A stretch of DNA of 62,593 nt from a virus (IMGVR_UViG_3300036785_000450:1-62593), one strand, 5' to 3'. Positions 23,803 to 56,149 are shown, numbered from the stretch's first letter. Translations and numbers: made by a program. Notes: generated by a model from the letters alone, not told the origin.

Positions 23803-24246
23803 TTACTCATGCCGTTGAGCCTCCACTGACGGGCCGTAGTACCCGTACTCGTTCAAGTCATCTCCGGCGAAGCGGACGTGGTGGGCCGGTACCTGGGCCT
23901 TGATGGTGGGCAGATCCTGGGCCGGATCGGTCGGGTGCTTGGCGTGCTCAGCGGCGTAGCGACCCGACAGCGTGACCCAGTCTCCGGTGTTGATATGCTG
24001 TATACCCCTGGGGGCGGCTCGATAGACAGTCACTGGTCGTTCGGGCTGCCCCCGGACACGGCGCATCTGGCGGATCGACTCCTGGGGGTGCTCAGTGCCG
24101 GTGTAGTACTGCGGGTGCTCGTAAACGTCCAGCCCCTCCATAATGTTGCCCTTCTGGGTCATGTCGTGCAGGGGCGGGCCTTCCGGGTTGGGTTGATGGT
24201 GACCCCGGTACCCGAACTGATCCCCAGAGAGGGCGTCCCGACTCAT
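23803..24246 (-). CDS. ADP-ribosyltransferase-like protein (R-S-E-like) with LxxxQF tag
   Basis: VTVYRA, GDWVTLS..YA..HA, GDDLNEYGY; N-terminus MSRDALSGDQF. Confidence 0.65.
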   Translation of the reverse strand: MSRDALSGDQFGYRGHHQPNPEGPPLHDMTQKGNIMEGLDVYEHPQYYTGTEHPQESIRQMRRVRGQPERPVTVYRAAPRGIQHINTGDWVTLSGRYAAEHAKHPTDPAQDLPTIKAQVPAHHVRFAGDDLNEYGYYGPSVEAQRHE

Positions 24247-24518
24247 TGCTCCACCCGACGAACTACCCGGACTGGATGCTTGGTCCGACGAGATTCCAAT
24301 TCAGGGATGTGCGCCAAGGCAGGATCTGTCTCGTGCTCACCCAAAGGCTCAACCTCGTAGAGGTACCGTCCATAGTTCCCAGAGGTTGGCTCAGTTTGGT
24401 TACCAGCAAAATAGACGTGAGGATCTCTGCGGCCCTGGGGATCGAGTACCTGCCCCGGCTCAAAGACATGGGTTGAGCCGTGGAAGAACTGCTGAGGGCT
24501 CAGCACCTCGTGACTCAT
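24243..24518 (-). CDS. Arr-like ADP-ribosyltransferase with LxxxQF tag
   Basis: FFHGS...PG..L, HVYF, YEVEP.G..E.DP, S.R...P.RVV; N-terminus MSHEVLSPQQF. Confidence 0.75.
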   Translation of the reverse strand: MSHEVLSPQQFFHGSTHVFEPGQVLDPQGRRDPHVYFAGNQTEPTSGNYGRYLYEVEPLGEHETDPALAHIPELESRRTKHPVRVVRRVEQ

Positions 24519-24655
24519 CAGTTCGGCCCCTGCCCCACGTCCTCGTCCTCCTTCTCCGGTATGACGTTCTGGGGATCGGGGGAGTCGATGGACTTCTCTG
24601 CGGGCAGATCGGTCACACCTGCGAACTGCTGACTGGACAGGACTTGGTGACTCAT
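24518..24655 (-). CDS. 45-aa acidic peptide with LxxxQF tag
   Basis: MSHQVLSSQQFAGVTDLPAEKSIDSPDPQNVIPEKEDEDVGQGPN; ATGA and TGATG coupling at its ends; absent from the ORF track. Confidence 0.75.
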   Translation of the reverse strand: MSHQVLSSQQFAGVTDLPAEKSIDSPDPQNVIPEKEDEDVGQGPN

Positions 24656-25053
24656 CGGATCTCTACACCCAGATCTCGTAGGTGACTCTCAGCTTCAGGC
24701 ACCGTGGGCTGACGGCGTTTGGGCAACCGGTCACCAGTGGAGCGAGCCCAAGCCTCACCGGCTTCGGTGCGGTCGGGGGAGTGCCGAGGCGGGCGCACAC
24801 CACGGGTCTCCCCGGCGATCCGGCGAGCCTCACCCAACAGACTGGTGGCGACACCCTGGCGGCGCACCTCGGACAGCACCTCGATGTTGCCGATCTCACC
24901 GGTCTTGTGGTGCCACATGATGCTGCCGATGGACATCGGGGCGCCTCCACCGTAGACCCGAAGCTCGTGATGGGGGCGGCTCTCCATCTCCTTCGGCTTG
25001 GCCTGGCGGAAGGCGTAGGTGAACTGCTGAGGGTTGAGCGCTCGCTGACTCAT
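24652..25053 (-). CDS. GNAT acetyltransferase with LxxxQF tag
   Basis: IEV..EVRRQGVATSLL (acetyl-CoA motif A), HS..RT.AG.AWA; N-terminus MSQRALNPQQF. Confidence 0.8.
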   Translation of the reverse strand: MSQRALNPQQFTYAFRQAKPKEMESRPHHELRVYGGGAPMSIGSIMWHHKTGEIGNIEVLSEVRRQGVATSLLGEARRIAGETRGVRPPRHSPDRTEAGEAWARSTGDRLPKRRQPTVPEAESHLRDLGVEIR

Positions 25054-25403
25054 CAGTCCTCTGGCCTCTCCGGGAAGTCCTCCACGTCGTGCTCTCGTAC
25101 CACCCGCATCGGGTGGAGGCTACGAACAGATCCCTTCCCTCCTAGTGTGGGGTCAGCCTCGATGGGGCCAGTCGGCTCGACCTCATAGATCCGAGGATTG
25201 CCACCGTACTTCCGGGATCCACCACCGGCATACTGAGCGTACGTCCGTGCCCAGCCACGCTGTGAGGTGGCGTAGACATGCTCATGCCGCATGACATGGA
25301 CAGGCTCATGACCGGGTTCCACATGCTCACCGGGCTTGAGGTCGGCTCCCGTGCCATGGAAGTACGGTCCAAACTGCTCGTCGTTGAGAGCCTCATGACT
25401 CAT
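25053..25403 (-). CDS. Arr-like ADP-ribosyltransferase with LxxxQF tag
   Basis: PYFHGT.ADLKPG, HVYAT, PRIYEVEPTGPIEADP, S.RS.HPMRVV; N-terminus MSHEALNDEQF; ATGA overlap. Confidence 0.8.
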   Translation of the reverse strand: MSHEALNDEQFGPYFHGTGADLKPGEHVEPGHEPVHVMRHEHVYATSQRGWARTYAQYAGGGSRKYGGNPRIYEVEPTGPIEADPTLGGKGSVRSLHPMRVVREHDVEDFPERPED

Positions 25404-26401
25404 GAACGCCACTGCTTGCCCAGCAGAGCGCTACCTGGCTGCTCAGTGCTGAAGGCGAAGACGTGCTTCTGCTGACCCCCTGCGGTGGTGTAGCTAGTCC
25501 GAAAAGTCTTCTCCCGGTCGGGATATAGCTCCTCAAAGGCTTTCCCCCGCCGAGGATCAGCCTGCGACCACCCAGGGCCTTCACCCTTGTCGAACTGCTC
25601 ATGCAGTCCCTGCTGACGGCCCTGGGGTGCTGACCCAGATGACCAGCGCTCCTTGATCTTCTCCTCGGTGTGCTCAGGGGCCTTCTTGGCTGCCCAGGCG
25701 ATCAGGGGGTGGACCTTCTCACCCCGCTGCTGAGCGGCCTGCACCATCTCCCGGTGGGTGGACAAGAAGCCCTTGCGCTGGGGCGCCCCGACCGAGATCG
25801 AACCGGCATTCTCGACCTTGTTCTCGTAGAGGTAGCCGGTGGTACGGCCTCCATAGGACTGGCCTCCCCAGGAGCCATATCGGGTAGGACCAAGCTCTCG
25901 GTGCCTGGTGACATCGGGCTGCAAGTTTTCGGGGCCTTCCACCGGACCAGTGATCCGCAGAGGATACATGTGACCAGCCATGCCCTCCTTGAGGCCCCGA
26001 CGCTTGATGTTGGCCCCTACGCGCTGGCGGGCCGCAGCCTCGGTACCGGCGTGGAAGCCTTCACCCCTCCCTACCCCACTACCACCCAGGCGACCCTGAG
26101 GGCCACCCTTGGTCACCCGGCCATGCCACCACGTCCGGGGATCGGCGGCGAACTGGTCCGGTGTCTGCTGGTGGGCCTCCATGGCCGGGATCTTCTCTGG
26201 GTCGAACAGTTGCCCCTGGCTCTGTCCCTGGGGCTTATCTAACAGACCGTGACCGTGATATTGAGCCCATGGCGTGTCAGGATGGCCCTTTGCCCAGGCC
26301 AAGTCAGCGTCTCTCTTGGGCTGCTCATGCCGTACCCTGGCCTCTTCCGGCCCACCCGTAAACCCATGAAACTGGGCGCCGAGGGACTCCTGGGCGCTCA
26401 C
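25400..26401 (-). CDS. ADP-ribosyltransferase-like protein (polyvalent-protein type) with variant QF tag
   Basis: WWHG, GFHAGT..AA..R, MYPLRI, YENKVENAGSIS; N-terminus MSAQESLGAQF; internal QGQLF. Confidence 0.6.
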   Translation of the reverse strand: MSAQESLGAQFHGFTGGPEEARVRHEQPKRDADLAWAKGHPDTPWAQYHGHGLLDKPQGQSQGQLFDPEKIPAMEAHQQTPDQFAADPRTWWHGRVTKGGPQGRLGGSGVGRGEGFHAGTEAAARQRVGANIKRRGLKEGMAGHMYPLRITGPVEGPENLQPDVTRHRELGPTRYGSWGGQSYGGRTTGYLYENKVENAGSISVGAPQRKGFLSTHREMVQAAQQRGEKVHPLIAWAAKKAPEHTEEKIKERWSSGSAPQGRQQGLHEQFDKGEGPGWSQADPRRGKAFEELYPDREKTFRTSYTTAGGQQKHVFAFSTEQPGSALLGKQWRS

Positions 26402-26637
26402 TCCTCACCCTCTCCCATCCCCTCCTCCTCACCACCACCAGGACGGCCCTGACCGAAGGCGGTGCCAGAGGGCATGGCACGAACGGCGGTGAGATCGTGA
26501 GAGAAGGACGGCTTGAAGACGTTGGCGGTCATGTTCTGCACACCCCGCACCCGGGTCGCCAACTCGTCCATGTTGCCCTGCTCCAAGATGCTGCGTTCGG
26601 TGTTGAACTGCTGGTTCGACAACACATTGCTGCTCAT
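26398..26637 (-). CDS. Small protein with LxxxQF tag
   Basis: MSSNVLSNQQF; acidic C-terminus; coupled stop and start codons. Confidence 0.75.
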   Translation of the reverse strand: MSSNVLSNQQFNTERSILEQGNMDELATRVRGVQNMTANVFKPSFSHDLTAVRAMPSGTAFGQGRPGGGEEEGMGEGEE

Positions 26638-27068
26638 GATCTCACCTTCCTAGCCTGATATCGGCGCTGTGCTTCCCGGTTACAGACTCGACATACTCGT
26701 ATCGGTCCTCTGCCAGTCACATACTCGTAGACGTTCTCTGGCGTACGAGGATGACCGTTACGGCAGGCCAGGGTGCGAGACCGGAACACGTTGACTTGGT
26801 GCGTAACCGCTTCCAGATGGTTTGGATTGGCACAGTGCGGGTGACGGCAGAGATGGTCAAGTTCCAGGTCTTCCGGTATCTCTCCGATGAACATCTGGTA
26901 GGCCCACCTATGCACTTTTTGCATCGGCTCTCTCGTAACTGGACGAAACTTGGCATAGCCATCAGGAGAGAGCGGTCCCTGCCAGAGCCAACAACCATCC
27001 TCTGTCACGAGGATTTTTGACCAGAACCGTTGGAGCGGCGTGCCAAGGTAACCGGGGTAGACAGTCAA
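26634..27068 (-). CDS. HNH homing endonuclease
   Basis: CWLWQG, VHRWAY, DHLCRHPHCANPNHLEAV, C-terminal CRNGH..CRVC. Confidence 0.9.
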   Translation of the reverse strand: MTVYPGYLGTPLQRFWSKILVTEDGCWLWQGPLSPDGYAKFRPVTREPMQKVHRWAYQMFIGEIPEDLELDHLCRHPHCANPNHLEAVTHQVNVFRSRTLACRNGHPRTPENVYEYVTGRGPIRVCRVCNREAQRRYQARKVRS

Positions 27069-27586
27069 CTTCGATCAGGCTCCTGTTCAAAAAGCCTTGG
27101 GTCGGTAGCCTTCAACTCCCTCTGGCGAGTTATTTCCTCGTCAATCTGCTCCCAGGGACGGGGCAGTCTTTTCTTGTCGGGGCGGTACTCGGCCCACCGG
27201 TAGCTGGGGTTGGTGAACAGCAGGGCGGGGACACCCAGTTCGGTCACGATGAGGACGGTGGCCGGGTCAGCGGACACGATCAGACCCAGGTCATGGCCCT
27301 CACGACGCAGGTAGCTAGCCTGCTCAGCCCTGACCACCGAATCGGACATATCCGCCCATTCCGGCTCACGCACCAGCAGCCGGGTGTAGAAGGCGGGGCT
27401 GGTCATGCCGTTGACCAGGAGCCAGTGCTCAGTGGCGTGCTGGTCGAGGCTGACCGTCCCGAAGGTCAGGTTGTAGCCGGTGCGGAGGGCGTGAGCCAGC
27501 TTGACCCCGTCCGGGATGGGGTAGAACCCGGCCAGAGTGGAGTGGTCCCCGAGCACTCCCTCGATGCACACCAGGGCCGTGCTCAT
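27065..27586 (-). CDS. HAD-superfamily-like protein, probably lacking the catalytic DxD
   Basis: ALVCIEGVL, PIPDG..L, EHWL..NG, IVSADP; start re-called to MSTAL. Confidence 0.55.
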   Translation of the reverse strand: MSTALVCIEGVLGDHSTLAGFYPIPDGVKLAHALRTGYNLTFGTVSLDQHATEHWLLVNGMTSPAFYTRLLVREPEWADMSDSVVRAEQASYLRREGHDLGLIVSADPATVLIVTELGVPALLFTNPSYRWAEYRPDKKRLPRPWEQIDEEITRQRELKATDPRLFEQEPDRS

Positions 27587-27588
27587 GG

Positions 27589-27813
27589 CTAACTGCTGTA
27601 CTGACTGGCCCTGGAGCCCTTGTTGGTCATCTGATCCGGTGCGTGCGGATAAGGCTGGGTCTGGCCGAAGTGCGTCACCCAGGACTGCCGGAGCAAGCTG
27701 GGCCACTGCCCAGGGTCACGGGAGCCATTACTGGAGTCGTAGAAGGTCGACCAGTTGGTGGCCTTGGGGGAGCGACCTGGGGAGGAACGCACGACTTTTC
27801 GTGCGATGCTCAC
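27589..27813 (-). CDS. Small hypothetical protein
   Basis: 74 aa, GTGA coupling. Confidence 0.65.
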   Translation of the reverse strand: MSIARKVVRSSPGRSPKATNWSTFYDSSNGSRDPGQWPSLLRQSWVTHFGQTQPYPHAPDQMTNKGSRASQYSS

Positions 27814-28079
27814 CGGACCACCCTGACCGGCATCTTGGTAGCCCCCGACTCCAAGGCCCCGCCATACCGATGATGACCGTCGATCATGCGATACCTTCCC
27901 TGGTAGGGAGCCACTAGGGGAGGGGTACCGTCACTGGCCCCCCGTCGAGCGATGTCCATAACCTTGGCGTGATCGAGATGAAGCTGGGTGGCATCGATCC
28001 TGTCCAGGCGCACTGAACGAATAGGCATTTTCGGGTTGGGCTTTTTTGCGAACTGGGCTGTAGACAGGGGCACGCTCAC
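27810..28079 (-). CDS. ParB/Srx-like N-terminal-domain protein with LxxxQF tag
   Basis: ATQ, PPLV, MIDGHHR; N-terminus MSVPLSTAQF; leaderless TAGGCT-N6-GTG. Confidence 0.8.
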   Translation of the reverse strand: MSVPLSTAQFAKKPNPKMPIRSVRLDRIDATQLHLDHAKVMDIARRGASDGTPPLVAPYQGRYRMIDGHHRYGGALESGATKMPVRVVR

Positions 28080-28135
28080 GACCCAAGCCTAGGTGTCGGC
28101 CAGTGGCCCCCCTGGGCCATCTAGGCTGGTCCCTG

Positions 28136-28435
28136 ATGTCGGACACCAACCTCCTAGGCGGGTTCTGCTACCTGTGCAACACCAGCATCGAAGCTGACGT
28201 CCAGGCGCATTTTGCCCAGGAGCACCAGACGTCGGCGCGCAAGCCCAAGGTGCCCATCATGGCCTGGGAGCACCGGATCCAGAACGTCCTGGGCGAGCTA
28301 GCCGAGGTACTGGACAGCCAGGACCGGAACCGCCAGATCGATCTGCTCGACAACGTGGTTCAGGAGCTATACCTCGTTCGGGCCAAGGTGGCCCAACTGA
28401 AGGGCACACCCGTCATGCGAGTGAAAGAAGGATGA
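28136..28435 (+). CDS. C2H2-like zinc-finger protein
   Basis: CYLC...HFAQEH; TAGGCT-N8-ATG. Confidence 0.65.
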   Translation: MSDTNLLGGFCYLCNTSIEADVQAHFAQEHQTSARKPKVPIMAWEHRIQNVLGELAEVLDSQDRNRQIDLLDNVVQELYLVRAKVAQLKGTPVMRVKEG

Positions 28436-28436
28436 C

Positions 28437-28721
28437 ATGGGCGTCGTAGATTGGCGGGCTTGGACGGCACAGGGCGGCGGTCAGATGCCGACTGCCCCCA
28501 ACCCGCCTGGCACCCCGTACGTGCCGAATACCCCGTTCCCTGGGGTGAATCCGATCACCGACCTGATCAACATGACCACGTCGGTCCCGCCCTACCCGAG
28601 CCTGTCCAGCCCCGGCAACTGGGTCACGGTCAAGCCGGTCGACCCCTTCGGAGGCTGGACCGACCAGCAGGAGACCCTCAACAAGACGATGCGCCCGGTA
28701 GTTGCTGGCCTGACCTCGTAG
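28437..28721 (+). CDS. Pro-rich hypothetical protein
   Basis: 94 aa, GAAGGA RBS. Confidence 0.7.
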   Translation: MGVVDWRAWTAQGGGQMPTAPNPPGTPYVPNTPFPGVNPITDLINMTTSVPPYPSLSSPGNWVTVKPVDPFGGWTDQQETLNKTMRPVVAGLTS

Positions 28722-28722
28722 C

Positions 28723-29259
28723 ATGCCCAGCGAGTCCCTCCGGGCCGAGGCGGCCAGGACGGGCCAGACCCTCTATCAGGTCCGTATGTCGCGCCTGCGG
28801 GGGACGGATACGGCCAGCTTCCGGCAGCGGCGGGAGGAGCGCTTCCGCCAGCAGCGCATCCGAACCAAGCGGGCCGAGGAGGGCTTCAGCCACATCCCGT
28901 CACCGGTCGAAGCAGGCTGGGAGGAGCTAGGCCCTGGCTTCCCCCTGACCTCAGAGGAGACGCCCCACGGCGCTCAAGGCCCGTTCGGGCCGAGCCCGGA
29001 CCCGGCCTGGGACTTCTACTGGCCGACCAGGACGATCAACCCGCCCCGGCCCAGGACGCTCCAGGCCCGCTACTCCCGCAACGTCCAGGAGCTACAGGTC
29101 ATCTTCCGAGACGGCACCCCCTGGACCTACTTCGGAGTCCCTCCCAACATCTGGCAGCGGTTCAAGCGCACCGAGTCACCGGGCAAGTACATCAACAACG
29201 TGCTCAACGGCTACGACTACAGCCGGGGTGGATGGGGCAGCATCGTAGGCGAAGGGTGA
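28723..29259 (+). CDS. KTSC-domain protein
   Basis: ARYSRNVQELQVIFRDGTPWTYFGVPPNIWQRFKRTESPGKYINNVL. Confidence 0.8.
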   Translation: MPSESLRAEAARTGQTLYQVRMSRLRGTDTASFRQRREERFRQQRIRTKRAEEGFSHIPSPVEAGWEELGPGFPLTSEETPHGAQGPFGPSPDPAWDFYWPTRTINPPRPRTLQARYSRNVQELQVIFRDGTPWTYFGVPPNIWQRFKRTESPGKYINNVLNGYDYSRGGWGSIVGEG

Positions 29260-29263
29260 GACT

Positions 29264-29458
29264 GTGGCGGCGGAACCCACGAAGGAGCCGTCGAAGCTAC
29301 CGTCCAAGATTGACCAGATCCTGGACGAGATCGACCAGGCCCTAGAGGAGAACGACAAGGTCTTGGATGGAGATCTACCCCGACGACTACGACGACCCCG
29401 AGGAGCGAGAAAATCAGTGGGTACTACCCAGCCTCCCGGACCCTGCCCTCGTTCCTGA
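29264..29458 (+). CDS. Pup-like peptide lacking the C-terminal GGE/Q
   Basis: IDQILDEIDQALEEN resembles the Pup core DDLLDEIDDVLEEN. Confidence 0.55.
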   Translation: MAAEPTKEPSKLPSKIDQILDEIDQALEENDKVLDGDLPRRLRRPRGARKSVGTTQPPGPCPRS

Positions 29459-29729
29459 CAACACCAAGTCATGCTGGATTTTCTACGCCTGGCGAGGTGA
29501 GCCACGACAGGGCCAGTGGCCCGTCACGGTCGCAGTAACCAGGGAGATCACGGCCCCTTGGCGGCGGGGGCTGGGTATCATGCTCAGGAGAAAAGATCGT
29601 GCCAGTGCGGTCGGTGTCTGGATGCGTGGGAAGCCTCCCCGTATCCTGAGTGACGCACCGGCCGAGCAGGACTGGCACGACGTCGTCACCAGAGCGAACG
29701 ACTTGGAGCGAGGACTTGAGCACAACTGA
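29367..29729 (+). CDS. Hypothetical protein
   Basis: 120 aa; T.EITAPWRRG motif. Confidence 0.65.
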   Translation: MEIYPDDYDDPEERENQWVLPSLPDPALVPDNTKSCWIFYAWRGEPRQGQWPVTVAVTREITAPWRRGLGIMLRRKDRASAVGVWMRGKPPRILSDAPAEQDWHDVVTRANDLERGLEHN

Positions 29730-30564: not shown

Positions 30565-30799
30565 GGAGTGGCGACGGGACAGACGCGACACCGGCTACTG
30601 GAAGAAGGCCAGAGAACGCTCAGGGTCCATGCGAGAGGCTGAGATCGTCTCCGAGATCGACCTGGCCCTCATGGGCGGCGGTCTGATCATCACCCGGTAC
30701 CGGAGCAGTGATCGGAAGACCCAGCTTGACCAACTGAAGGAGCTACGTCTCAGCCTGGAGGCGTGCCTGGGCATGCTGGAGAACGTCCTACCTGAGTGA
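30551..30799 (+). CDS. Hypothetical helical protein
   Basis: 82-aa ORF. Confidence 0.7.
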   Translation: MSVLREWRRDRRDTGYWKKARERSGSMREAEIVSEIDLALMGGGLIITRYRSSDRKTQLDQLKELRLSLEACLGMLENVLPE

Positions 30800-30836
30800 C
30801 GCAAGGGCAGGGTTGGAGCGAACCTAGCGTTGGGGT

Positions 30837-31292
30837 GTGCTCAGTCCTCGACAGTTCGGTGGCCTCAGCGGTGAGTTGCGGAGCAAGGGTGGCTTCACGG
30901 TCAACGTCCACACTGGCGAGCGGCCTACCAGCGGGTACGTGGTGGCTGACCTCCAGGGCGAGAGGAAGATGCCCTTGCGTGGCACCACCGGGCGGGACAT
31001 CCAGGCATATGCCGAGACCAAGGGAGGGAAGCGGCTCACTGGCCCCCACCGGTACCTGGGCGGCTGGGCTGACAAGGGGGCCAAGCCTCAGCAGGCCGTG
31101 CTCGACCGCTCCACCCACTACCCAGAGACACCTTGGGGCCAGAGCAAGTCGTACGTCAGGATGGTGGCGAACTTCCAGAAGGCTGCCTACCACGTCACCA
31201 GCGCCACCAGCGGCACCGACATCGATAACCCGGCACACATGGACGACCCGGTCAAGCGGATGCGGCGGTTCCGGGGAGAGAATGTCGGGTAG
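30837..31292 (+). CDS. Hypothetical protein (GGFT...GY.V...LGGW...LD.S...Q.A pattern) with LxxxQF tag
   Basis: N-terminus MLSPRQF; leaderless TAGCGT-N6-GTG. Confidence 0.75.
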   Translation: MLSPRQFGGLSGELRSKGGFTVNVHTGERPTSGYVVADLQGERKMPLRGTTGRDIQAYAETKGGKRLTGPHRYLGGWADKGAKPQQAVLDRSTHYPETPWGQSKSYVRMVANFQKAAYHVTSATSGTDIDNPAHMDDPVKRMRRFRGENVG

Positions 31293-31479: not shown

Positions 31480-31498
31480 GTTATTCAAGGTACTACCT

Positions 31499-31988: not shown

Positions 31989-31991
31989 GAG

Positions 31992-33516: not shown

Positions 33517-33550
33517 CCATGTTCACTCACCCATGTGGTATACTACGACC

Positions 33551-34000: not shown

Positions 34001-34158
34001 CCGAACAGAACGCCGATTATGGCGTGATCGATCAGGACACGCTGAACAGCTACGACAGGGCGCTCGCACGACTACGAGACGCCCACGAGGACGAGTTCCG
34101 CAGCCTGCTCGCCGTGGAACGAGGCACGCAGATCGACAGTTCTGGTGGTGAGTCATGA
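33997..34158 (+). CDS. Small hypothetical protein
   Basis: GTGA and ATGA coupling. Confidence 0.6.
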   Translation: MTEQNADYGVIDQDTLNSYDRALARLRDAHEDEFRSLLAVERGTQIDSSGGES

Positions 34159-35147
34159 CCGAGGTCTACCGCCCCATCGACGTGCTCGACAAGCAGGCCC
34201 AGATGGTTCGCTGGTGGAAGACCAGCCAGTACCGGCACAGCTTCGCTGACGCCTTCGGCTACGCCGTCCAGAAGTACCGCAGCACCATGGGCGAGAGCGT
34301 AGACACCTTCATCGCCAGCCGACTCAACGATGCCGAGACCTTCTACGTCAGGTCCAACATCATCGACCGGCTCTGGCACTTCACCGACGTGTACGAGACC
34401 CATGGTCACGAGACCATCGAGTACCAGGACTTGCCCTGCCCCAGGGGATTCATCTTCCTGGAGCGGCCGATCCACATGATCGACGCCCGTGGTCGGGTGT
34501 GCTCGATCAAGATCATCCTGTGGTCCGAGGAGCGGGGCGGGGTGTCCATCGTGGAGTTCAGCGACGCCAAGGATCCCCTGGACGAGATCAACCACCTGGA
34601 CCGGCTGAAGACGGGCAAGCCGACCAGTGACATCACCGAGTACCCGCTCTTCCACATCATGCCCTGGGCCTGGGGCAAGAAGGTCCGCAACCTGACCGTC
34701 GCAGACTTCTCCGAGGACCAGCCCGGCGTCCCCGAAGATACTGAGGCTGACCGGCAGACCATCAGGGACAACATGCCGACTTCAGTCCAAAGCATGGACC
34801 GCTTCAACGGGTTCCTGCTCTCGCTGTGGGAGTTCGTGCAGGAGCAGGTGCCCTACCGCATGCGGGCCGACCGGTACATGCTGAAGCGGCTCCAGCGGGC
34901 GCACAGCCCCATCTCTGAGGTGACCGTCGTTGACCTGCGGCCCGTCGACCAGCCGCCCAAGCACACCGACCCGGACCACGTCCCTGAGACCGTGCTATGG
35001 AGTCACCGCTGGCGAGTGCGTGAGCACAAGCGTCGCTGGATCGACAAGCACGGCAACTACCGGGAGACCACCGTGTCAGCCTGCGTCAAAGGGCCGGAGT
35101 ACCTGCCCCTCATCGAGAAGGATCGGGTTTATCATGTCAAGCGTTAA
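34155..35147 (+). CDS. Hypothetical phage protein
   Basis: 330 aa; LP.P.GFI..E.P; C-terminal WSHRWRVR.H.R...VKGP..LP. Confidence 0.8.
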   Translation: MTEVYRPIDVLDKQAQMVRWWKTSQYRHSFADAFGYAVQKYRSTMGESVDTFIASRLNDAETFYVRSNIIDRLWHFTDVYETHGHETIEYQDLPCPRGFIFLERPIHMIDARGRVCSIKIILWSEERGGVSIVEFSDAKDPLDEINHLDRLKTGKPTSDITEYPLFHIMPWAWGKKVRNLTVADFSEDQPGVPEDTEADRQTIRDNMPTSVQSMDRFNGFLLSLWEFVQEQVPYRMRADRYMLKRLQRAHSPISEVTVVDLRPVDQPPKHTDPDHVPETVLWSHRWRVREHKRRWIDKHGNYRETTVSACVKGPEYLPLIEKDRVYHVKR

Positions 35148-35157
35148 GGAGAATCGT

Positions 35158-36023: not shown

Positions 36024-36035
36024 AGTACGAGCCTA

Positions 36036-36341: not shown

Positions 36342-36344
36342 GGC

Positions 36345-48656: not shown

Positions 48657-48813
48657 TATCTCGCCTGCTCCAACACGACGTCTATCCAGTGATGTCGTTC
48701 AGGGAACGACATGGACTTGATTTCCGACAGGGTCCAACCAGGGAACCGCTCTGCGATCCGTTGGTACTGTAGATAGAGGAGGTCGAAGGAGGTGAGGTCG
48801 TTAACGAAAAAGG
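48656..48813 (-). CDS. Tail assembly chaperone C-terminal extension, probably reached by frameshift
   Basis: FVNDLTSFDLLY.QY..I...FPGWTLSEIKSMSF.ER..W lies in the +1 frame after CTT TTT C. Confidence 0.6.
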
Positions 48814-49625
48814 TCCACCAGGGATACGGTGTAGTCCCCCTCTCGACCGCATTCCAGACATGCCACCTCCACCTCCTCCATGACGGGACCAGGCTGTCCA
48901 TCGGCCATGGCCTTAGTGACCGAGCGACGATCAGCCATGCTCATCTTCTGAGCCATGGGAGTGGTCACCGGCTGACCATCGATGGAGCGAAGGCTGCGGT
49001 TGATCGCAATGGTGATCTCTTCTGGACCCGTGCGGTTACCGTCACCCACCATCTCCAACTGCACAGCACCGCTCAGCAGATGCACCATGGCTAGATGACC
49101 GTTTCGCAACGACACCTCTACATCCTGGACCATCGGGTTCTCCAGCTTCTTGACCTTGATGCTGTCCAAGTCGATGATGGTGCCGAAGGTCTGACCACAG
49201 AACCGGCAGGGGAAGTCAGGCACCTCCCAGTCAGCACCGAAGGTCAGCATGCGGATCTTCAGCATGAGGTAGGCCCGGTCACCGGACAGCAGGTCAGCCA
49301 AGATGGCTGGCGGCACCGGGTCCATGGTGCCCACTGAGAGCACACAGCGCCTGAGGAGGAGGTCCACCACCTTGGGGACATTCACCGTGGGATTGCGTAG
49401 CTCCCGGGCCATGGCCTCTTCGTCCGACCCGTTGATCTCGCGGATGCGAGCGTCAGTATGCAGGAGACCGTCCTGATCCAGGTAACCACCGGGGAGCGTC
49501 ACCGTGTCGGCCGGAAGCGCCCCCATCAGCGGGATGGACGGCTTGGTGAGCTTGTTCGCCAGACTGGTGGCGAGTTCTGGCTGCCGGAGCGCCTCGATTA
49601 CCTCGACATCGGGAACATCACTCAT
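48801..49625 (-). CDS. Tail/baseplate assembly chaperone
   Basis: LPGGY, IREING.DEE, LLSGDR.YL..IR..TFG, CRFC and CLEC. Confidence 0.8.
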   Translation of the reverse strand: MSDVPDVEVIEALRQPELATSLANKLTKPSIPLMGALPADTVTLPGGYLDQDGLLHTDARIREINGSDEEAMARELRNPTVNVPKVVDLLLRRCVLSVGTMDPVPPAILADLLSGDRAYLMLKIRMLTFGADWEVPDFPCRFCGQTFGTIIDLDSIKVKKLENPMVQDVEVSLRNGHLAMVHLLSGAVQLEMVGDGNRTGPEEITIAINRSLRSIDGQPVTTPMAQKMSMADRRSVTKAMADGQPGPVMEEVEVACLECGREGDYTVSLVDLFR

Positions 49626-50236
49626 GGCATCTGCGAGCCACCGACGAAGGAGCCGGGATCCTGGCTGGCGGTGATGACGGCCCAGCCCTCATGGGCCAGG
49701 GTCAGGTTCTCGATGAAGACAGCGTTACCACCGGCCTCCAGGTCACTGAAGCTGTAGCCCATGGGCCAAGCGTTGTAGACCGCGAACCGTGCCTTGATGG
49801 GCGGGGTCTGATCCACACCGGCTGCCATGGCCCCACTGGTCATGGGATGCTCAAGGACGTCGATGGTGACACCCACCCGGAAGTCGGTGTTGTTCCCGAA
49901 GCCAGCCCCGATGGCGACACTGAAGATCTGGGTGAACCAATCGTAGATCTCGTGAGTACCGATGTTGGACGTGACACCGTTCTCTATGGGAGCGGCCATG
50001 AAACCACGGGTCATGGTCAAAGGTCCGAAGTCGGATTGACCGGGCATCTTCCGGGTCGTGGTGTTGTTGCCACCCTCACGGTAGGGGATGACCTCGTTGT
50101 TCACCGACAGACCAGACACCGCCATGAAACCAAAGCGAGCCAGATTCTTCAGTGAACTGTTGGGGTGGTTGATGGCGACCCGATAGCGAAAGTTCCGCAG
50201 GGGATCAGAGTTGAGTCCTCTATTGCTAGCAGCCAT
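49622..50236 (-). CDS. Tail tube protein (T4 gp19-like)
   Basis: DPLRNFRY.V, GF..VSGL, YREGG..T.RKMPG, YNAWP..Y.FSDL.A, E.LTLAHEGW. Confidence 0.93.
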   Translation of the reverse strand: MAASNRGLNSDPLRNFRYRVAINHPNSSLKNLARFGFMAVSGLSVNNEVIPYREGGNNTTTRKMPGQSDFGPLTMTRGFMAAPIENGVTSNIGTHEIYDWFTQIFSVAIGAGFGNNTDFRVGVTIDVLEHPMTSGAMAAGVDQTPPIKARFAVYNAWPMGYSFSDLEAGGNAVFIENLTLAHEGWAVITASQDPGSFVGGSQMP

Positions 50237-50245
50237 TCGTGCTCC

Positions 50246-51850
50246 TTAGGTGGTGACGGAAATAGTCTGACCGCCCGCCCACTGGCCGACGTGAATCACC
50301 ACGAACTCGGCGGGGAACTGCAAGGCCACACCCACTTCCACGTTGATGATGCCTTGCTGAATAGAAGACTGGGGGTTGTTGCTGTCATCACAGATCACAT
50401 AGAACGCCTGTGATCCACTCGACCCCTGGAGACCGCCGCTCTGCCAGAACATTGACAAAAACTGCGTGAGGACAGAAGTGATCTGATTCCGCAAGATCCA
50501 GTCGTTCGGTTCAAAGACAGCGAACTTCGTCAACGCCACCATCTGAGTGGACAGGTAGATCAGCGACCGCTCCGTCGACACGTACCGGGTGATGAGATAG
50601 GGCGACAGCGTGCGGGCACCCCAGACCACAATGCCAGAGCCAGGCACGGCGATGATGCAGTTGACATTGGCCTGGGTCAGGGTGCCCTGGTCAGTATTCG
50701 TGATGATCGTCTCCAGCCCATAGGCTCCAAGCAGGGAAGCACCGAGACCGGCAGGGGCCTTGGCGACTCCTCGACTGGAGTCAGTCGCCACGTACAACCC
50801 GGTGACGAACCCGCCCGGTGGCACCAGCCGGGTGACCCCAGGCTGAGGCGAGTACGGATCAGCGATCTGCACCTGGGGGTAGTACACCGCAGCCTGGGCA
50901 CTGGCCGGGAGACCTGAGGCACCCTGGACCCAGGACACCATGCTGGCCGGATTCAGGCCGGGCGGGCAGTCCACCACCACGAAGCCATTGCCACGCGACT
51001 GAGCGTAAGCGATCACGTTGGAGAGATCGGCCGCCGTCGTCATGCCTGGCATGTTGATGATGAACGGCTGATCAGGGTACTGGTCCAGTCCTGCGGTGAG
51101 GGCAGCCTGGATGTCACTGGAGGTGATAGGCGAGCCGTCAGAGCCCGCAGCTAACTGCTGAGAAGAAGCGGTAGGGCGAGGATTGTTCGCCGGAGCAGCC
51201 GTTGCTGAGTTGAGATCCTGGACGGTGATGTACCGAGAGCCGGAGAAGGTACTGTTGATCACGTTGGGGGCGTAGTTGTTCTGGCCCACGACATTGGACC
51301 CCTGAACCATCGACACGTCCTGCCACCGCTCGACAATGTTCTGCGGGCCATTGCCCTGGTACTTGACCACGACGGTGAAGCTCAGGACATTCTGGAGGGC
51401 ATCCTTGATGGTACCGGGCAGGATGTCAATGTAGATGTTGTTGCCCCACGCTCCTGGGTTGGCAGCGGAAATCTTGAGGGTGGGAACACCACCCACCGGG
51501 CTGGTGGCCTGGTCATTGAAGGAGAAGGTGGCAACCACCGGACCTGAAGCGTCCTGACGAGCGGCCCGGATAACGGTGGCGCTACTGCCACCGGCCGAGA
51601 AGTAACAGAAGACGGCCAGCTTGAGAGGGCTAGGAGGGTAGGCGGTCTCAAAGCCACCGAACTGAGCGACGAAGTCCCGCCAGGAGTCAACGATGGTGGG
51701 CGTCACCCCGTACTTAGTGGTCCCTACGGTGCAGGGACCACGATTCATCGGCCCACAGAAACATGCCGCCGCCGTACCCGGTGTGGCACTGATATAGGTG
51801 GGGAACGACGACGTGTCCACATAGACGCCGGGACGAGTGAGGGTGGGCAT
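50246..51850 (-). CDS. Tail sheath protein
   Basis: RPGVYV, AVYYP, PPGG.V.G, KAPAG, VVWGARTL, FAVFEPN, VGVALQFPAEFV. Confidence 0.95.
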   Translation of the reverse strand: MPTLTRPGVYVDTSSFPTYISATPGTAAACFCGPMNRGPCTVGTTKYGVTPTIVDSWRDFVAQFGGFETAYPPSPLKLAVFCYFSAGGSSATVIRAARQDASGPVVATFSFNDQATSPVGGVPTLKISAANPGAWGNNIYIDILPGTIKDALQNVLSFTVVVKYQGNGPQNIVERWQDVSMVQGSNVVGQNNYAPNVINSTFSGSRYITVQDLNSATAAPANNPRPTASSQQLAAGSDGSPITSSDIQAALTAGLDQYPDQPFIINMPGMTTAADLSNVIAYAQSRGNGFVVVDCPPGLNPASMVSWVQGASGLPASAQAAVYYPQVQIADPYSPQPGVTRLVPPGGFVTGLYVATDSSRGVAKAPAGLGASLLGAYGLETIITNTDQGTLTQANVNCIIAVPGSGIVVWGARTLSPYLITRYVSTERSLIYLSTQMVALTKFAVFEPNDWILRNQITSVLTQFLSMFWQSGGLQGSSGSQAFYVICDDSNNPQSSIQQGIINVEVGVALQFPAEFVVIHVGQWAGGQTISVTT

Positions 51851-51854
51851 TTTT

Positions 51855-52586
51855 CTACTCCCTTGGTGTCACTTGGGATTGGCCGGGGATGCTGCGGTCG
51901 AGAGAGGAGGTGTTCGGGATGGCCTGCATCACGCCTGGTCCCCACAGCGTCGTCCTGCTGTACCTGTCCAGGATGGTCAGGACGACGTGGCGCACCCTGG
52001 TGGTCAGCAGTGAGACCGGGTCCTCGATCTCGGTGGGGATCCGAAGGTGGTAGATCTGGCGGAAGAGCCGCTTGTCGGTCTCCATGCTGTTGGTGCGGGT
52101 CACCCCCATGACGGTGATCCGTCGCACCGTGCCACCCGGGCAGGTCATCTGGGCGAACCGGGGGTGCAGCGGACCCATCGCCAGGGCGTACGACATCTGC
52201 GAGATGTGCTGGTTGATCCGAGAACTGGCCGTGACGGTGTAGTCGAAGTCCAGCGGGATGGGGTACTCCATGGAGGGTGGGGGATCAGGGAGGGGGATGT
52301 TCTGGAGGTACCGATATCCCACCGGTACGTACCCCCGATGCTCACGCTCGTGAGCCACCCGCTCACCCATGAAGTTGATCACGATGTTGGGGTAGGTGAT
52401 CCGGCGCTCTTCCCGCTCCGGGTTGTGGAACCACACCGGCACCGCCCGGGGCGTGTTGGCGCTGGCGTTCAGGTCGGTGACGGTGATCCCCTGGAGCAGG
52501 TTCTTCAGCCCCATGTCCTCCTCGACGTACAGCCCCAGGAAGGGGGAGTTGACGTCAGTGTCGTAGGGCGGGCTGACCAGGGTCAC
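51855..52586 (-). CDS. Putative tail terminator/completion protein
   Basis: Position upstream of the sheath; VPVWF.NP, TYP.I, P.P.D.DY. Confidence 0.6.
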   Translation of the reverse strand: MTLVSPPYDTDVNSPFLGLYVEEDMGLKNLLQGITVTDLNASANTPRAVPVWFHNPEREERRITYPNIVINFMGERVAHEREHRGYVPVGYRYLQNIPLPDPPPSMEYPIPLDFDYTVTASSRINQHISQMSYALAMGPLHPRFAQMTCPGGTVRRITVMGVTRTNSMETDKRLFRQIYHLRIPTEIEDPVSLLTTRVRHVVLTILDRYSRTTLWGPGVMQAIPNTSSLDRSIPGQSQVTPRE

Positions 52587-52966
52587 GCCGACACCTTCTG
52601 AAGCTCCTGGAGGAAGCGCTGCTCGATGTCCCCGGCCTGCTTCGCCAGGTCGTGGGTCACGTCGCTCAACTGGAAGATGCTGTGCATGGTCTCGGTCTGA
52701 GCCATGACGGGGCTGCCAGGAGGGATGCCCACGACGACGTTGTTCTCGTCCTCAAAGACGGTGATCTCGCCAGCTACCGCCTGGTGATCACGAAGGCTCG
52801 ACTCCCCCTCGATCATCCGCTTCATCGGCTCGACCATCTGCCCGCCAGCGACACGAGCCGCCACCTTGACGACAGCGAGGTCAGCCATCTTGCCGTACTT
52901 CTTGGCTACCGAGTTCAAGGTAGCCAGATCCTCTGACTTGACACAGTTGAATAAAGAGGAGGGCAT
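52583..52966 (-). CDS. Hypothetical virion protein
   Basis: GAGG RBS; start re-called to MPSSLF; GTGA coupling. Confidence 0.65.
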   Translation of the reverse strand: MPSSLFNCVKSEDLATLNSVAKKYGKMADLAVVKVAARVAGGQMVEPMKRMIEGESSLRDHQAVAGEITVFEDENNVVVGIPPGSPVMAQTETMHSIFQLSDVTHDLAKQAGDIEQRFLQELQKVSA

Positions 52967-53088
52967 TTTCCTCAGTCGTTCTAGGCATTTTTCGGCGGAA
53001 CTGCACACCGACGTTGGCGGGTCGGATAACAGCAATCGTAGGTCAGGGTGTCGCGCCCCCTGTGACCACCCGGACATAGCCTGGACCT

Positions 53089-54258
53089 GTGTCGATGAAT
53101 CAGTCGGGCCAGAGCGGCATGGGCGTGCTCGCCACCACCACCACGCCTGGCACCACGGTGGTGTCCGGGCTACCCAACCCCTACGACATCACCGCAGGCC
53201 AGCCAGGACAGTACCCCGACACCGACCAGGGGCTGCCCTACCCCCCGGTCGACCCCTCTTCGACCCAGCGGATCGCGCAGCTAGCACGGCTCCGACTGCG
53301 GGACCTGCCCCGGCCGTTCCTGTGCCGTCAGACGTGCTCCGGGGCAGCCTGGCGCTTTGAGCTACCGGTGGAGAACGTGTCGGCCGCCAACCTCCAGGTG
53401 GTGCTGACCGACACCACCCAGGGGGGTACTACCGGCCTCACGCTGGGCAACGACTACGTCCTGGACGAGCATGGCGGCACCTTGGTCTTCAGCGCAGCCC
53501 CTCCTGGGGGGCTGCTCATGGTGGCGCAGGGCACCTACTACCGGGACTTCCTGCCTGCCGAGCTTGACCTATACGTGCGGACCGCATATATACAGCACAC
53601 CTACGGGACCGACCCGCCCGAGCACATCGACCAGGGCTTCCCACCCGCACCAGGGCCTCCACCCCTGGGCACCACCGGCCAGCCCGTCAGCTACGGCACC
53701 CCGGCGCCCATGATGATCAGCGAGGTGGAGGAGTACCCCATCTCCATCCTGGTCACCATCATGGCCCTGTGGGACATCGCCGTGGGATTGGCCCAGCAGC
53801 ACGACGTCCACACCCCCGATGGCGTCACCATCCCGCTCAGCCAGACCTTCAATCAGGTCACCAGCATGATCGGCCAGCTTCAGCAGCAGTACCTGATGCT
53901 GTCGAGCGCCCTGGGCGTGGGACTGTACCGCATCACCCAGTCGAGGCTGCGGCGCATGTCCCGCACCACAAAGCGGCTGGTGCCGATTTTCCGGTCGAAG
54001 GAGTACGACGACATCACCTGGCCCCAGCGGGAACTCCCACCTGTTGATGTCACCCAGAAGATGTACACCTACCGAGGCACCTGGGATCCCGAGGCCAACT
54101 ACCAGGCCCAGGATCTCATCGATTTTGAAAATCATCGGTACGTGGCGCTCCAACCCAGCACGAATATCGACCCCACCAGAGACGTGGATCCCAAGACCGG
54201 GCAGGGCTACTACTGGCAGTGGACCACTCTGAATACCGGATGGGTTGGCTGGTGGTGA
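53089..54258 (+). CDS. Putative head-tail adaptor/neck protein
   Basis: R.RLRD, VEEYP..IL...ALW, TPDGVTIP, LRR.SRTT.RLVP; function inferred from context. Confidence 0.6.
   Translation: MSMNQSGQSGMGVLATTTTPGTTVVSGLPNPYDITAGQPGQYPDTDQGLPYPPVDPSSTQRIAQLARLRLRDLPRPFLCRQTCSGAAWRFELPVENVSAANLQVVLTDTTQGGTTGLTLGNDYVLDEHGGTLVFSAAPPGGLLMVAQGTYYRDFLPAELDLYVRTAYIQHTYGTDPPEHIDQGFPPAPGPPPLGTTGQPVSYGTPAPMMISEVEEYPISILVTIMALWDIAVGLAQQHDVHTPDGVTIPLSQTFNQVTSMIGQLQQQYLMLSSALGVGLYRITQSRLRRMSRTTKRLVPIFRSKEYDDITWPQRELPPVDVTQKMYTYRGTWDPEANYQAQDLIDFENHRYVALQPSTNIDPTRDVDPKTGQGYYWQWTTLNTGWVGWW
54240..54256 (+). repeat. 17-bp direct repeat, left copy, flanking the HNH-JAB insert
   Basis: ATGGGTTGGCTGGTGGT, identical to 55482-55498. 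Confidence 0.8.
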
Positions 54259-54292
54259 CCATGATGGTAACCTTCTGTGCTAGAGTCCGACC

Positions 54293-55477
54293 ATGTTCGG
54301 TCAACGATTCAACCGCTGGGAAGTCATCGACGGGCCTGATCTCAGCAACCCAACCCATCCAAAGTGGCTCTGTGAGTGCGAGTGCGGCACCACACGCTGG
54401 GTGCAAGCCCAACTTCTTCGTAGCGGGCGATCCCAGTCCTGCGGGTGCCACAGAAAAGAACAGGCTACGACTCACGGACAGTCCAAGACCAAGCTCTACC
54501 GTGTCTGGGACACGATGTGGGCACGCTGTACCAATCCAAGCAACCATCGCTACAAACACTACGGAGCACAAGGGATCGAGGTCTGTGAGGAATGGAGCCA
54601 GTTCTCCACCTTCTGGGAATGGGCAAAAAAGTCTGGCTACCAGGATGGCCTCACCATCGAGCGCAGTGACAACGATGGTGACTACACCCCGGAGAACTGC
54701 ACCTGGATCCCCAAGCGCAGCCAGCAGCGCAACACCCAGAAGAGCCTACGTGTCACCGCCTGGGGCGAAACCAAGGTGCTGCCCGAGTGGATCGAGGATG
54801 ACCGCTGCTCGATCAAGTACCACACGCTCTACGCCCGCCTACAGCATGGCTGGACCCCTGAGGACGCCATCGGTCTGCCCTACGGAGCTAGAGGGCGTGT
54901 GCCCGTGAGTCGGAACGCCTTGAACTCCGGGCAGTTTCTCCAGGGGCCGAACGAGACAAGCACCATCTCTAATGTCGTCAATCACCTACAGAACCGTCTT
55001 GGACCGCAGCACGGTGAAGAACACTTCGTGGTGCAGTCCGGTTCTGGACGCATCCTGTCACGCCTCAAAGGCCGTCCTGGCGCAGGCGAGATCGATACCG
55101 GCAAGATCCCGACCAAGAGGTTGGCAGGAAACATCTCGGTCCATAATCATCCTGGTGTCTCTAAGGGTGCCTTGTGCCCTCATTCCGAGAACGACCTGAC
55201 AAATGCTCTTGCTGTTGGGGAACGACGATCCATCGTGGTTACAAAGCCAGGTGTTCACACTGTCGAGGTACGTCATCCGACAGATGAACGTGATCATCCA
55301 GACTTTGAACGACTCCTCGACAAGGCTGAGAGACTTGAACAAGATCTGCCTATTCGGCCTACTCCTCATAACGAAAAACAATACGGACAAGCTGTGCATG
55401 GAAGACTTGGACAACTGGCGCAAGAGCATTCACGGTGGATGTCTTACCATTTTGAACCTCACGAAAGTGAAGTCTGA
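54293..55477 (+). CDS. HNH endonuclease in frame with a JAB/MPN-like domain; probable internal start at 54905
   Basis: WLCECECG, SCGC, RCTNP...YG.QGI.VC.EW, IER.DNDGDY.PENC.W; then VSRNALNSGQF...VHNHP...HSEND. Confidence 0.8.
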   Translation: MFGQRFNRWEVIDGPDLSNPTHPKWLCECECGTTRWVQAQLLRSGRSQSCGCHRKEQATTHGQSKTKLYRVWDTMWARCTNPSNHRYKHYGAQGIEVCEEWSQFSTFWEWAKKSGYQDGLTIERSDNDGDYTPENCTWIPKRSQQRNTQKSLRVTAWGETKVLPEWIEDDRCSIKYHTLYARLQHGWTPEDAIGLPYGARGRVPVSRNALNSGQFLQGPNETSTISNVVNHLQNRLGPQHGEEHFVVQSGSGRILSRLKGRPGAGEIDTGKIPTKRLAGNISVHNHPGVSKGALCPHSENDLTNALAVGERRSIVVTKPGVHTVEVRHPTDERDHPDFERLLDKAERLEQDLPIRPTPHNEKQYGQAVHGRLGQLAQEHSRWMSYHFEPHESEV

Positions 55478-55481
55478 TGAC

Positions 55482-55498
55482 ATGGGTTGGCTGGTGGT
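55482..55498 (+). repeat. 17-bp direct repeat, right copy
   Basis: ATGGGTTGGCTGGTGGT, identical to 54240-54256. Confidence 0.8.
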
Positions 55499-55516
55499 AG
55501 ATCAGATGGTGGTGAC

Positions 55517-56149
55517 ATGAGCCACAGCGCCCTCAACGGTGAGCAGTTCCATGACCACGTCCACCCCCACCAGCTAGCCCTGCCCGGCATGGAGCACCTG
55601 GCTCACCCCTGGGCCGGTCCCCTATCCCGTGGCTACATGCTGGGCTTTGAGTCAAGCGCTTCTGAGCACCACCTGCGGGCGGTGGACGTGTCCCATCCGA
55701 AGTACCCGACAGAAGCAGCGGAACTGGACTGGAAGAGGAAGAAGTCCCAGCACCCCGGCGAAGTCGCCATGGTGATCAACCTCCAAGGAAGCTATGGAGT
55801 CGATAAGGCAGAACGAGCCAGGGGCTTGGCCCCAGCGCTCTTCCACTCGGCTCACTACTTCAACTTCGGCCAGGAGACCGTGCCCATCCACTCACCGTTG
55901 CGGTCTGAGGAGGGGGAGCACTTCGCCAACAAGGTGCGCCCCGATCTCAAGCCCGACGTCTGGCACAACTACGTGACCGGGGTTGAGCAACGCCAGGCTG
56001 GAAAACCTAGAGGCGAACCCGCTGCCTGGGAGGGCGTGCATTACGGCCTCCATCCCTTTGAGCGAGCCGAGCAGGCGAAGCAGGAGCAGACCAGGAAGAA
56101 GCAGTCAGGCAAGTTGCAGTCTCGATCCTCACAGGGACGCCTGTTCTGA
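55517..56149 (+). CDS. GNAT-like protein with LxxxQF tag and C-terminal QGRLF
   Basis: MSHSALNGEQF; GEV...ERARGLAPALF and HS.LRS.EGE.FA parallel the 24652-25053 GNAT. Confidence 0.65.
   Translation: MSHSALNGEQFHDHVHPHQLALPGMEHLAHPWAGPLSRGYMLGFESSASEHHLRAVDVSHPKYPTEAAELDWKRKKSQHPGEVAMVINLQGSYGVDKAERARGLAPALFHSAHYFNFGQETVPIHSPLRSEEGEHFANKVRPDLKPDVWHNYVTGVEQRQAGKPRGEPAAWEGVHYGLHPFERAEQAKQEQTRKKQSGKLQSRSSQGRLF

Follow-up and report, generated by a model that had tools for sequence, protein, structure and literature searches.

A conserved peptide tag on unrelated, effector-like proteins of a phage genome and its possible role as a docking motif

The viral DNA considered here (IMGVR_UViG_3300036785_000450:1-62593; hereafter the window) is one entire virus record of 62,593 bp with 62% G+C, and its completeness is estimated by CheckV at ~53%. 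Eleven of the proteins encoded in the window carry the 11-residue N-terminus M-S-x-x-[AV]-L-[SN]-x-x-Q-F, or a variant of it, with the core L-[SN]-x-x-Q-F. This peptide, termed the tag, is real and far above chance, it is modular, and it is under purifying selection. Gene starts are inferred from the sequence, and all eleven N-termini claimed for these proteins in the original prediction were found at the start codons assigned to them there. Window genes were recognized with PHROGs and Pfam. Two near-complete relatives, G001 (114.5 kb, 98% complete) and G002 (117.5 kb, 100%), were fetched entire; compared with the window, their proteins show 56-76% identity in the sheath, and other core genes reach 79%.

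The tagged proteins are named here by their length in residues. On the minus strand, t147 (23803-24246; tag 24214-24246) is an open reading frame (ORF) of 147 aa, for which the source's own gene call of 119 residues leaves out the tag. It matches phrog_2579 (E 1e-30, covering profile positions 340-470 of 472), and its domain is embedded elsewhere in proteins of 650-1647 aa. An AlphaFold2 (AF2) model (predicted local distance difference test, pLDDT, 84, with residues 1-17 below 50) suggests a minimal ADP-ribosyltransferase (ART)-type fold: nearly all rows of the VIA comparison are ADP-ribosyltransferases, at low scores only (Z 3-5.5). A PDB sequence search with the t147 profile gave nothing meaningful. 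The adjacent t91 (24243-24518; tag 24486-24518) is an Arr-like ADP-ribosyltransferase by PF12120 Arr-ms (E 1.1e-4; 22.8 bits, below the cut-off of 25), the domain running from residue 12; its G+C content at third codon positions (GC3) is 0.59. A second Arr-like ADP-ribosyltransferase, t116 (25053-25403; tag 25371-25403), matches the same family at E 1.5e-12 (48 bits) with a domain that begins at residue 14, directly behind the tag, and tblastn of this protein against 50,697 phage records found two records only, both ‘Acinetobacter phage’ contigs annotated Arr. Between these two genes lie t45 (24518-24655; tag 24623-24655), an acidic 45-aa peptide without a domain that has orthologues at the loci of three relatives, and t133 (24652-25053; tag 25021-25053), a GNAT acetyltransferase by PF00583 (E 1.9e-4; 22.1 bits, just above the cut-off of 20.7). 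The 79-aa protein t79 (26398-26637; tag 26605-26637) has an acidic tail and represents the most widely kept tagged family, with 13 tblastn rows and eight distinct members.

The largest tagged protein, t333 (25400-26401, minus strand), bears three tag-like elements: one at the N-terminus in shifted form (core 26369-26383), L-H-E-Q-F in its interior (25592-25609) and A-L-L-G-K-Q-W at the C-terminal end (25409-25429). The two latter near-matches had already been pointed out in the original prediction, and they fared unequally: the C-terminal one, A-L-[LN]-x-K-Q-W at 2-6 residues from the C-terminus, is kept in five of six orthologues, the internal one in just three of the six. This protein is possibly ART-like, ESM Atlas giving leads to ART-PolyVal, PARP and Arr at 0.80-0.83 only; Pfam (E <= 1) returned no match for any of the six orthologues, and a PDB sequence search with t333 nothing meaningful. 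Also on the minus strand, t89 (27810-28079) is the first gene of its operon, starts with a GTG that follows TAGGCT by 6 nt, and carries a 10-residue variant of the tag (28050-28079) that is kept in six of six orthologues; it is weakly ParB-like (ParBc_2 E 0.006; ParB-like PHROG 1.9e-4).

The remaining three tagged genes are on the plus strand. t151 (30837-31292) has a minimal tag of seven residues (30837-30857), kept in G001 and G002, and matches phrog_3170 (E 2e-6, covering profile positions 303-412 of 433). Pfam searches (E <= 1) with t151, t190 and five tagged proteins of relatives gave nothing meaningful. t190 (54905-55477; tag 54905-54937) has a GTG start and lies in frame behind an HNH ORF (54293-55477, plus strand; PHROG E 1e-55 over residues 3-194), which reads without a stop into the t190 frame to make an ORF of 394 aa; translation of the protein may begin at its own GTG (54905), or it may be produced as an HNH fusion. 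A JAB-like H-x-H...S-x-x-D motif can be read in it from the sequence alone, and neither Pfam, PHROGs nor PDB sequence searches assigned it to a family. The GC3 of this gene is 0.49, against 0.59-0.84 for the other ten tagged genes, and no homologue was found in any fetched relative. Both t190 and t91 are compositionally atypical here, as recent acquisitions would be, and t190 was probably acquired recently. Given its low GC3, the lack of a homologue in relatives and its canonical tag, it would appear that the tag is put onto newly acquired genes. Finally, t210 (55517-56149; tag 55517-55549) has 31 homologues, most with the tag or a short form of it, and an AF2 model (pLDDT 81, residues 1-10 below 50) whose VIA rows are nearly all GNATs (Z 4.8-6.5, likewise low); Foldseek against the PDB gave no row at E <= 0.001 for the t147 or the t210 model. 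Of the domains originally proposed, two Arr-like ARTs and one GNAT are upheld by Pfam, and the ART fold of t147 and the GNAT fold of t210 are supported in part; the ART assignment of t333 stays at a weak Atlas lead, the ParB assignment is weak, and the JAB assignment of t190 is without a family match. The genes at ~54.9-56.1 kb had been regarded as neck genes, an identity that is at most putative.

In the six-frame translation of the window the core has 10 matches, and all 10 sit 0-7 codons past an ATG, GTG or TTG, as do 28.5% of six-frame positions in general; the eleventh protein, which starts at 26401 on the minus strand, has S-L-G-A-Q-F, a variant displaced by one residue. In 100 first-order Markov simulations of the window the motif came up 0.55 times on average (maximum 4), and 0.17 times near starts (maximum 3), which bears out the N-terminal enrichment implied by the original prediction. 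Scrambled-order motifs yielded 2-15 matches in G000-G003 (four genomes) against 26 for the true order. With a position-specific scoring matrix (PSSM) derived from 35 distinct tags, which have Q without exception at position 10 and mostly P or N at position 8, the eight canonical window tags score 24.9-36.1 bits, every one at a start codon; otherwise only tag variants close to a start (13.3 and 15.5 bits) rise above 12 bits in G000-G003. The strict motif lies at starts in six of six cases in G001, five of five in G002 and 21 of 21 over three genomes including the window, counts for relatives that include orthologues and are not independent events.

The conservation is that of a peptide. Among 42 tag instances Leu6 is spelled with six codons, and Ser7 with TCN ten times and AGY nine times; since synonymous codons differ between copies, selection acts at the peptide level, as had been claimed from the window copies. 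Gln10 is CAG throughout, as are 653 of 736 Gln codons genome-wide. Ser2 is AGY in 42 of 42 instances, the A at +4 being forced by ATGA start/stop overlaps and translational coupling; the seven junctions of the cluster comprise five ATGA/GTGA overlaps and two TGATG. M1, S2, A5, L6, Q10 and F11 do not vary among ten GNAT homologues, whose identity to the first row is 45-72%. The cargo behind the tag is a different matter. Without their first 11 residues the proteins are mutually unrelated save t91 and t116 (34% identity), with weak short matches for t133/t210 and t89/t91, and 55 distinct tagged proteins from the window, G001-G003 and other loci fall into 14 cargo families, a number that omits the t333 family because the regular expression missed it. 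The view that the tag is a modular element before different folds holds in this larger set too, the low-GC3 gene included.

The tag extends to relatives, within limits. IMG/VR loci around homologues of the DpdA and sheath genes bear it on additional cargo, and a degenerate DNA pattern matched 12 times in G001-G003 against none for a reversed control. A stricter pattern, with ~0.7 chance matches expected by our own estimate, found 13 stretches on 10 contigs across all IMG/VR, from a few sample series; six of the 10 contigs are sheath or DpdA relatives, and the rest come from the same or similar series. In 596 billion bases of bacterial genomes the stricter pattern had seven matches, about chance level, four of them in one Burkholderia protein family (three of 250 aa and one cut at 57), which we take to be PqqC. 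The WhiB genes suggest an actinobacterial host, and none of the seven matches is actinobacterial, so host proteins seemingly do not use the canonical motif. The canonical tag is also absent from five complete relatives with 60-73% capsid identity, one of which (G004) has, on the minus strand at 84.1-85.9 kb (locus L148:4100-5870), a cluster of five small genes with the core motif behind prefixes of 2 to ~30 residues, among them one t147 homologue and one ParB-like protein. Distant homologues of the t147 and t210 families have shortened forms of the tag. From the shortened forms, the variable prefixes and the C-terminal copy on t333, the essential element appears to be the six-residue core, usually but not always near the N-terminus. 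Megablast of the tagged cluster against the 50,697 phage records gave no match, and full-text searches on capsid-targeting sequences, encapsulins and targeting peptides, ejection and polyvalent proteins found no paper that describes the tag, peptide motifs not being pattern-searchable there; this is weak evidence that it is unpublished.

One near-match outside tagged genes was considered as a tag and rejected. The best non-tag PSSM site (12 bits) is V-L-R-F-E-Q-F-A at residues 44-51 of the G002 major head protein (locus L056:8150-9181, plus strand). All of 31 capsid proteins share this N-arm segment unchanged, among them those of the five relatives without the canonical tag (of which G004 has shortened variants of it), which marks it as part of the capsid fold, and its likeness to the tag is probably a coincidence.

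What the cargo has in common, judged by its predicted domains, is an effector-like character. As described in PMC5512222 (Iyer et al. 2017), polyvalent proteins combine several domains, act as early effectors and are delivered together with phage or plasmid DNA; their domains include ART, GNAT, DdrB-like ParB, RadC and MPTase, and DdrB-like ParB is there associated with phage-type (head-delivered) polyvalent proteins and RadC with those of conjugative elements. Much of this repertoire recurs here, as Arr-ms, GNAT and predicted ART and GNAT folds, a weak ParB, a possible but unconfirmed RadC/JAB, and MPTase-PolyVal and ArdC-N nearby; the t147 domain is itself found within such giant proteins, both t147 and t151 correspond to C-terminal portions of longer phage proteins, and an early-phase effector role is proposed for both groups. 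The architecture differs, as far as that source describes it: polyvalent modules, 2-15 domains per polypeptide, are fused in one chain that is later cut, whereas the tagged proteins are separate small genes (45-333 aa) with at most one recognizable domain each and a common tag. The tag itself was also considered as a linker motif of the giant proteins and rejected: in four of them no conserved L-[SN]-x-x-Q-F lies upstream of the t147-like domain, A-Q-F being present in one and S-Q-L in another.

The reading favoured here, with a probability of roughly one in three (about 0.35), is that the tag is a docking motif for fast-changing effectors that are loaded into the virion for injection. The clade would attach a flexible short linear motif to small accessory ARTs, GNATs, ParB-like proteins and acidic peptides, and the tagged enzymes would be free-standing versions of modules that other phages fuse in giant polyvalent effectors. 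The tag would give all cargo one shared handling step, which we infer to be docking to a single common partner. This would be followed by loading into the virion (head or tail lumen) at assembly and by entry into the next host with the DNA; what is otherwise achieved by fusing effectors into a single packaged polyprotein would here be done non-covalently. A protease might remove the tag, but the model does not need it to. Docking is proposed because the core is disordered (pLDDT below 50 on both modelled folds), invariant and position-tolerant on many unrelated, rapidly exchanged cargoes, is also grafted onto foreign genes, and is multiplied on t333; the variable prefixes in G004 and the C-terminal copy on t333 favour it as well. 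Virion loading is ranked first among the possible outcomes of docking because the cargo resembles modules of packaged polyproteins and because two members, t190 and t210, are in an operon that adjoins tail genes. The fuller statement, slightly less probable still, is that the clade runs a peptide-addressed cargo system in which the tag would dock proteins on a virion component, the proteins would be injected with the DNA, and anti-defence and takeover enzymes could be swapped as single small genes. Such a system would amount to polyvalent proteins in non-covalent form and to a viral parallel of encapsulin loading into an HK97-fold shell. Mechanisms outside the readings discussed here are rather unlikely.

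Several observations weigh against virion loading. The operon that contains nine of the 11 tagged genes also holds WhiB, DpdA and an HNH gene and is distant from structural genes, and in G001 and G002 tens of kb separate the tagged cluster from the head module. In G002 this module runs in the order large terminase, a 145-aa protein, a variable lysine-rich protein, portal, scaffold and major head protein; no prohead protease is present in its PHROG annotation, and no head or scaffold protein of the relatives bears the tag. Peptidase_Prp (PF04327) was found in none of four clade genomes (E <= 1; control genomes gave matches), so that T4-style processing would proceed without a visible enzyme. 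In most of 28 aligned homologues the t210 family ends in G-Q-G-x-L-F, with the stop directly behind it; this C-terminus resembles the sliding-clamp-binding pentapeptide and would point to action inside the cell. A single co-folding job without controls (G002 capsid, scaffold and tagged GNAT, supplied as alignments) gave 0.00 and speaks neither way, and a search for a tag receptor by presence or absence of G002 genes in G000-G005 left far too many clade-specific genes.

Among known systems, the capsid-targeting sequence (CTS) of phage T4 appears in our comparison the closest in logic, and the Prp cleavage site the closest in sequence. The T4 CTS is a ~10-residue N-terminal peptide on the internal proteins IPI-III, which act early in the next host, and the T4 prohead protease cleaves at L/I-x-E. 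Like the CTS, the tag is a short, modular N-terminal peptide on several otherwise different small proteins of one phage, 11 in the window. Unlike it, the tag has no L/I-x-E, is matched by no recognized prohead protease in the G002 head module, is encoded outside the late or head operon, tolerates internal and C-terminal positions and precedes a largely enzymatic cargo that is far more diverse (at least 14 families); the CTS proteins are packaged, whereas for the tagged proteins packaging is a prediction. Family 2A encapsulin cargo offers a second parallel, a L-A-R-L-A-N-E-F-F-S motif within a disordered N-terminal targeting domain, as given in PMC8049743. There too a short motif in a disordered terminus serves unrelated cargo, with an L..N-E-x-F flavour and the interior of an HK97-fold shell as destination; the encapsulin shell is, however, a cellular compartment and not a DNA-filled capsid, and capsid binding by the tag would be by analogy only. 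The likeness of a few residues may be chance. Extracellular contractile injection systems (PVC and similar ones) use disordered N-terminal payload signals of ~50 residues that are poorly conserved. The tag shares with them the disordered N-terminal position on diverse putative effectors of a contractile-tail machine, and differs in being 11 residues long with a near-invariant core and in belonging to a DNA phage.

Should the tag prove to be a loading or docking signal, its 7-11 residues would make a minimal, portable label that directs chosen proteins to a phage particle or to a defined partner, and the injected or co-acting effector arsenal of such a phage could be listed from its genome. The polyvalent strategy would then be achievable by docking instead of fusion, which would link phage capsids with encapsulin-style loading. 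Mechanism aside, the tag singles out no fewer than 14 cargo families, of which several have an unknown fold, as candidates for host takeover or counter-defence.

Docking need not lead into the virion. The tag might instead bring the enzymes to one intracellular hub, such as the replisome, RNA polymerase, the ribosome or a phage protein, with nothing packaged, and this alternative is possible, if on the doubtful side. The variable distance of the motif from the N-terminus in G004, its C-terminal copy on t333 and the disorder of the tag in the AF2 models suit such recruitment, as does the position of genes within the WhiB/DpdA operon. ParB-like members are, in addition, directly upstream of the DpdA gene in seven of seven scanned DpdA-anchored loci, and t210 has a second, C-terminal peptide motif. 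Sliding-clamp-binding motifs are pentapeptides, Q-x-x-L-F or Q-L-x-L-F, and usually terminal. The N-terminal tag has the opposite order, L...Q-F. No C-terminal motif common to the set emerged, as only the t210 family and one 418-aa protein of G005 (locus L151:4854-6110, minus strand; G-Q-Q-K-L-F) end in Q-x-x-L-F. Against a hub stand the lack of a candidate for it and the chance-level bacterial scan, with no actinobacterial match, and there is no evident reason to recruit acidic peptides of 45-79 aa that have no enzyme domain.

Alternatively, the tag could be a propeptide or processing signal that is cut at or beside Q-F, like Prp sites, and that would time activation or turnover; cleavage before F would leave a destabilizing N-terminal Phe. 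We regard this as unlikely. The Prp site that Firmicute L27 has in common with the phage 80alpha capsid and scaffold proteins is M-L-x-x-(D/N)-L-Q-(F/L)-F'A (PMC9405229), and it is shared by non-homologous phage proteins (PMC5744158) on short N-terminal extensions of variable length (both sources). Aligned on the final F, the tag shares with this site L, N, F and often Q/E, and both are short extensions ending in L-N-x-Q/E-x-F; the variable prefixes of G004 are compatible with such a signal, and t333 has three copies. The full motif as given in PMC9405229, (D/N)-L-Q-(F/L)-F followed by A-(S/H)-K-K, is not found, as just L, N and the final F align: P2 and P4 differ, and the residue behind F is highly variable instead of A. 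Furthermore, it is accessory enzymes rather than structural proteins that carry the tag, capsid and scaffold proteins of the relatives being untagged, and to cut t333 2-6 residues short of its C-terminus would serve no purpose. To the missing PF04327 may be added the apparently actinobacterial host: PMC9405229 names Firmicutes and five other phyla as holders of Prp, and a text search of it did not turn up ‘Actinobacteria’.

A tag without any common function, either a generic helix start (capping box) or a 5'-end remnant of duplication or recombination, is very unlikely. The pattern h-[SN]-x-x-[EQ]-h is a classical helix N-cap, to which the tag conforms, and the four Burkholderia proteins begin with this pattern and continue in a stretch that looks helical; several tagged members, however, have Gly or Pro right behind the tag, where a helix cannot continue. 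A remnant could be seen in the uniform AGY of Ser2 and in the HNH genes that flank tagged genes, but synonymous sites have diverged and the ATGA overlaps account for AGY. Neither version explains why 21 of 21 strict motifs are at starts, or why tag residues stay invariant while cargo identity drops to 45%. That the element works as nucleic acid, as a translational repressor site or a re-initiation signal for each cistron, is barely credible, for although the genes are tightly coupled by 1-nt or 4-nt overlaps, with codon 2 restricted to AGY and Q10 always CAG, Leu6 and Ser7 vary in codon use, CAG prevails genome-wide regardless, and the motif also lies at a C-terminus and behind the long prefixes of G004.

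The window lacks a head module, with no terminase, portal, scaffold or capsid genes, all of which the relatives of 114-117 kb possess. Its contractile tail is represented by genes for the sheath (50246-51850), the tube (49622-50236), a baseplate protein and a tape-measure-like protein that contains a lysozyme domain; also recognized were an endolysin, three HNH endonucleases, a helicase, a dCTP deaminase and a glycosyltransferase. One HNH gene (26634-27068) flanks t79, and another lies at 56680-57285. A WhiB-like regulator is encoded at 23315-23590 and a DpdA-like transglycosylase at 21879-23492. The minus-strand region 15567-23492 carries the genes for the DpdA-like transglycosylase, the dCTP deaminase and the glycosyltransferase, which suggests that the phage DNA is modified. 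An untagged protein with ArdC-N and MPTase-PolyVal domains (10434-11567, plus strand; PF18818 E 4e-35, PF08401 E 6e-23) is, by these domains, a predicted zincin peptidase of the polyvalent-protein type, and serves as context only.

Hexamers resembling a -10 element (TAGGCT, TAGCGT, TAGCCT and TAGAGT) are placed exactly 6 nt 5' of the starts of t89, t151, a 389-aa gene and an HNH gene (sites at 28050-28110, 30810-30840, 53060-53095 and 54270-54295), with divergent operons just 11-23 bp apart; this spacing suggests leaderless transcripts. The WhiB/DpdA operon and the tail-adjacent operon both begin with TAG-N-N-T, 6 nt and GTG, so that expression timing is not readable from the promoters.

The 330-aa protein at 34155-35147 (plus strand) has ESM Atlas neighbours (0.97) annotated as an AcrVA2-like anti-CRISPR family and is not a capsid protein; a PDB sequence search with it gave nothing meaningful. 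Proteins of 821 aa (18727-21192, minus strand) and 771 aa (60255-62570, minus strand) have Laminin_G_3/concanavalin-like domains and match a ‘virion structural protein’ PHROG, and a 1642-aa relative adjoins the G002 head module. Lastly, a conserved ORF of 164 aa (17435-17929, minus strand), which is untagged, shows W-A-L-L-T-Q-Q-F at 17 residues from its stop in the window, G001 and G003, and the variant L-L-A-T-Q-Q-F in G002; this tag-like string is probably part of a helix.

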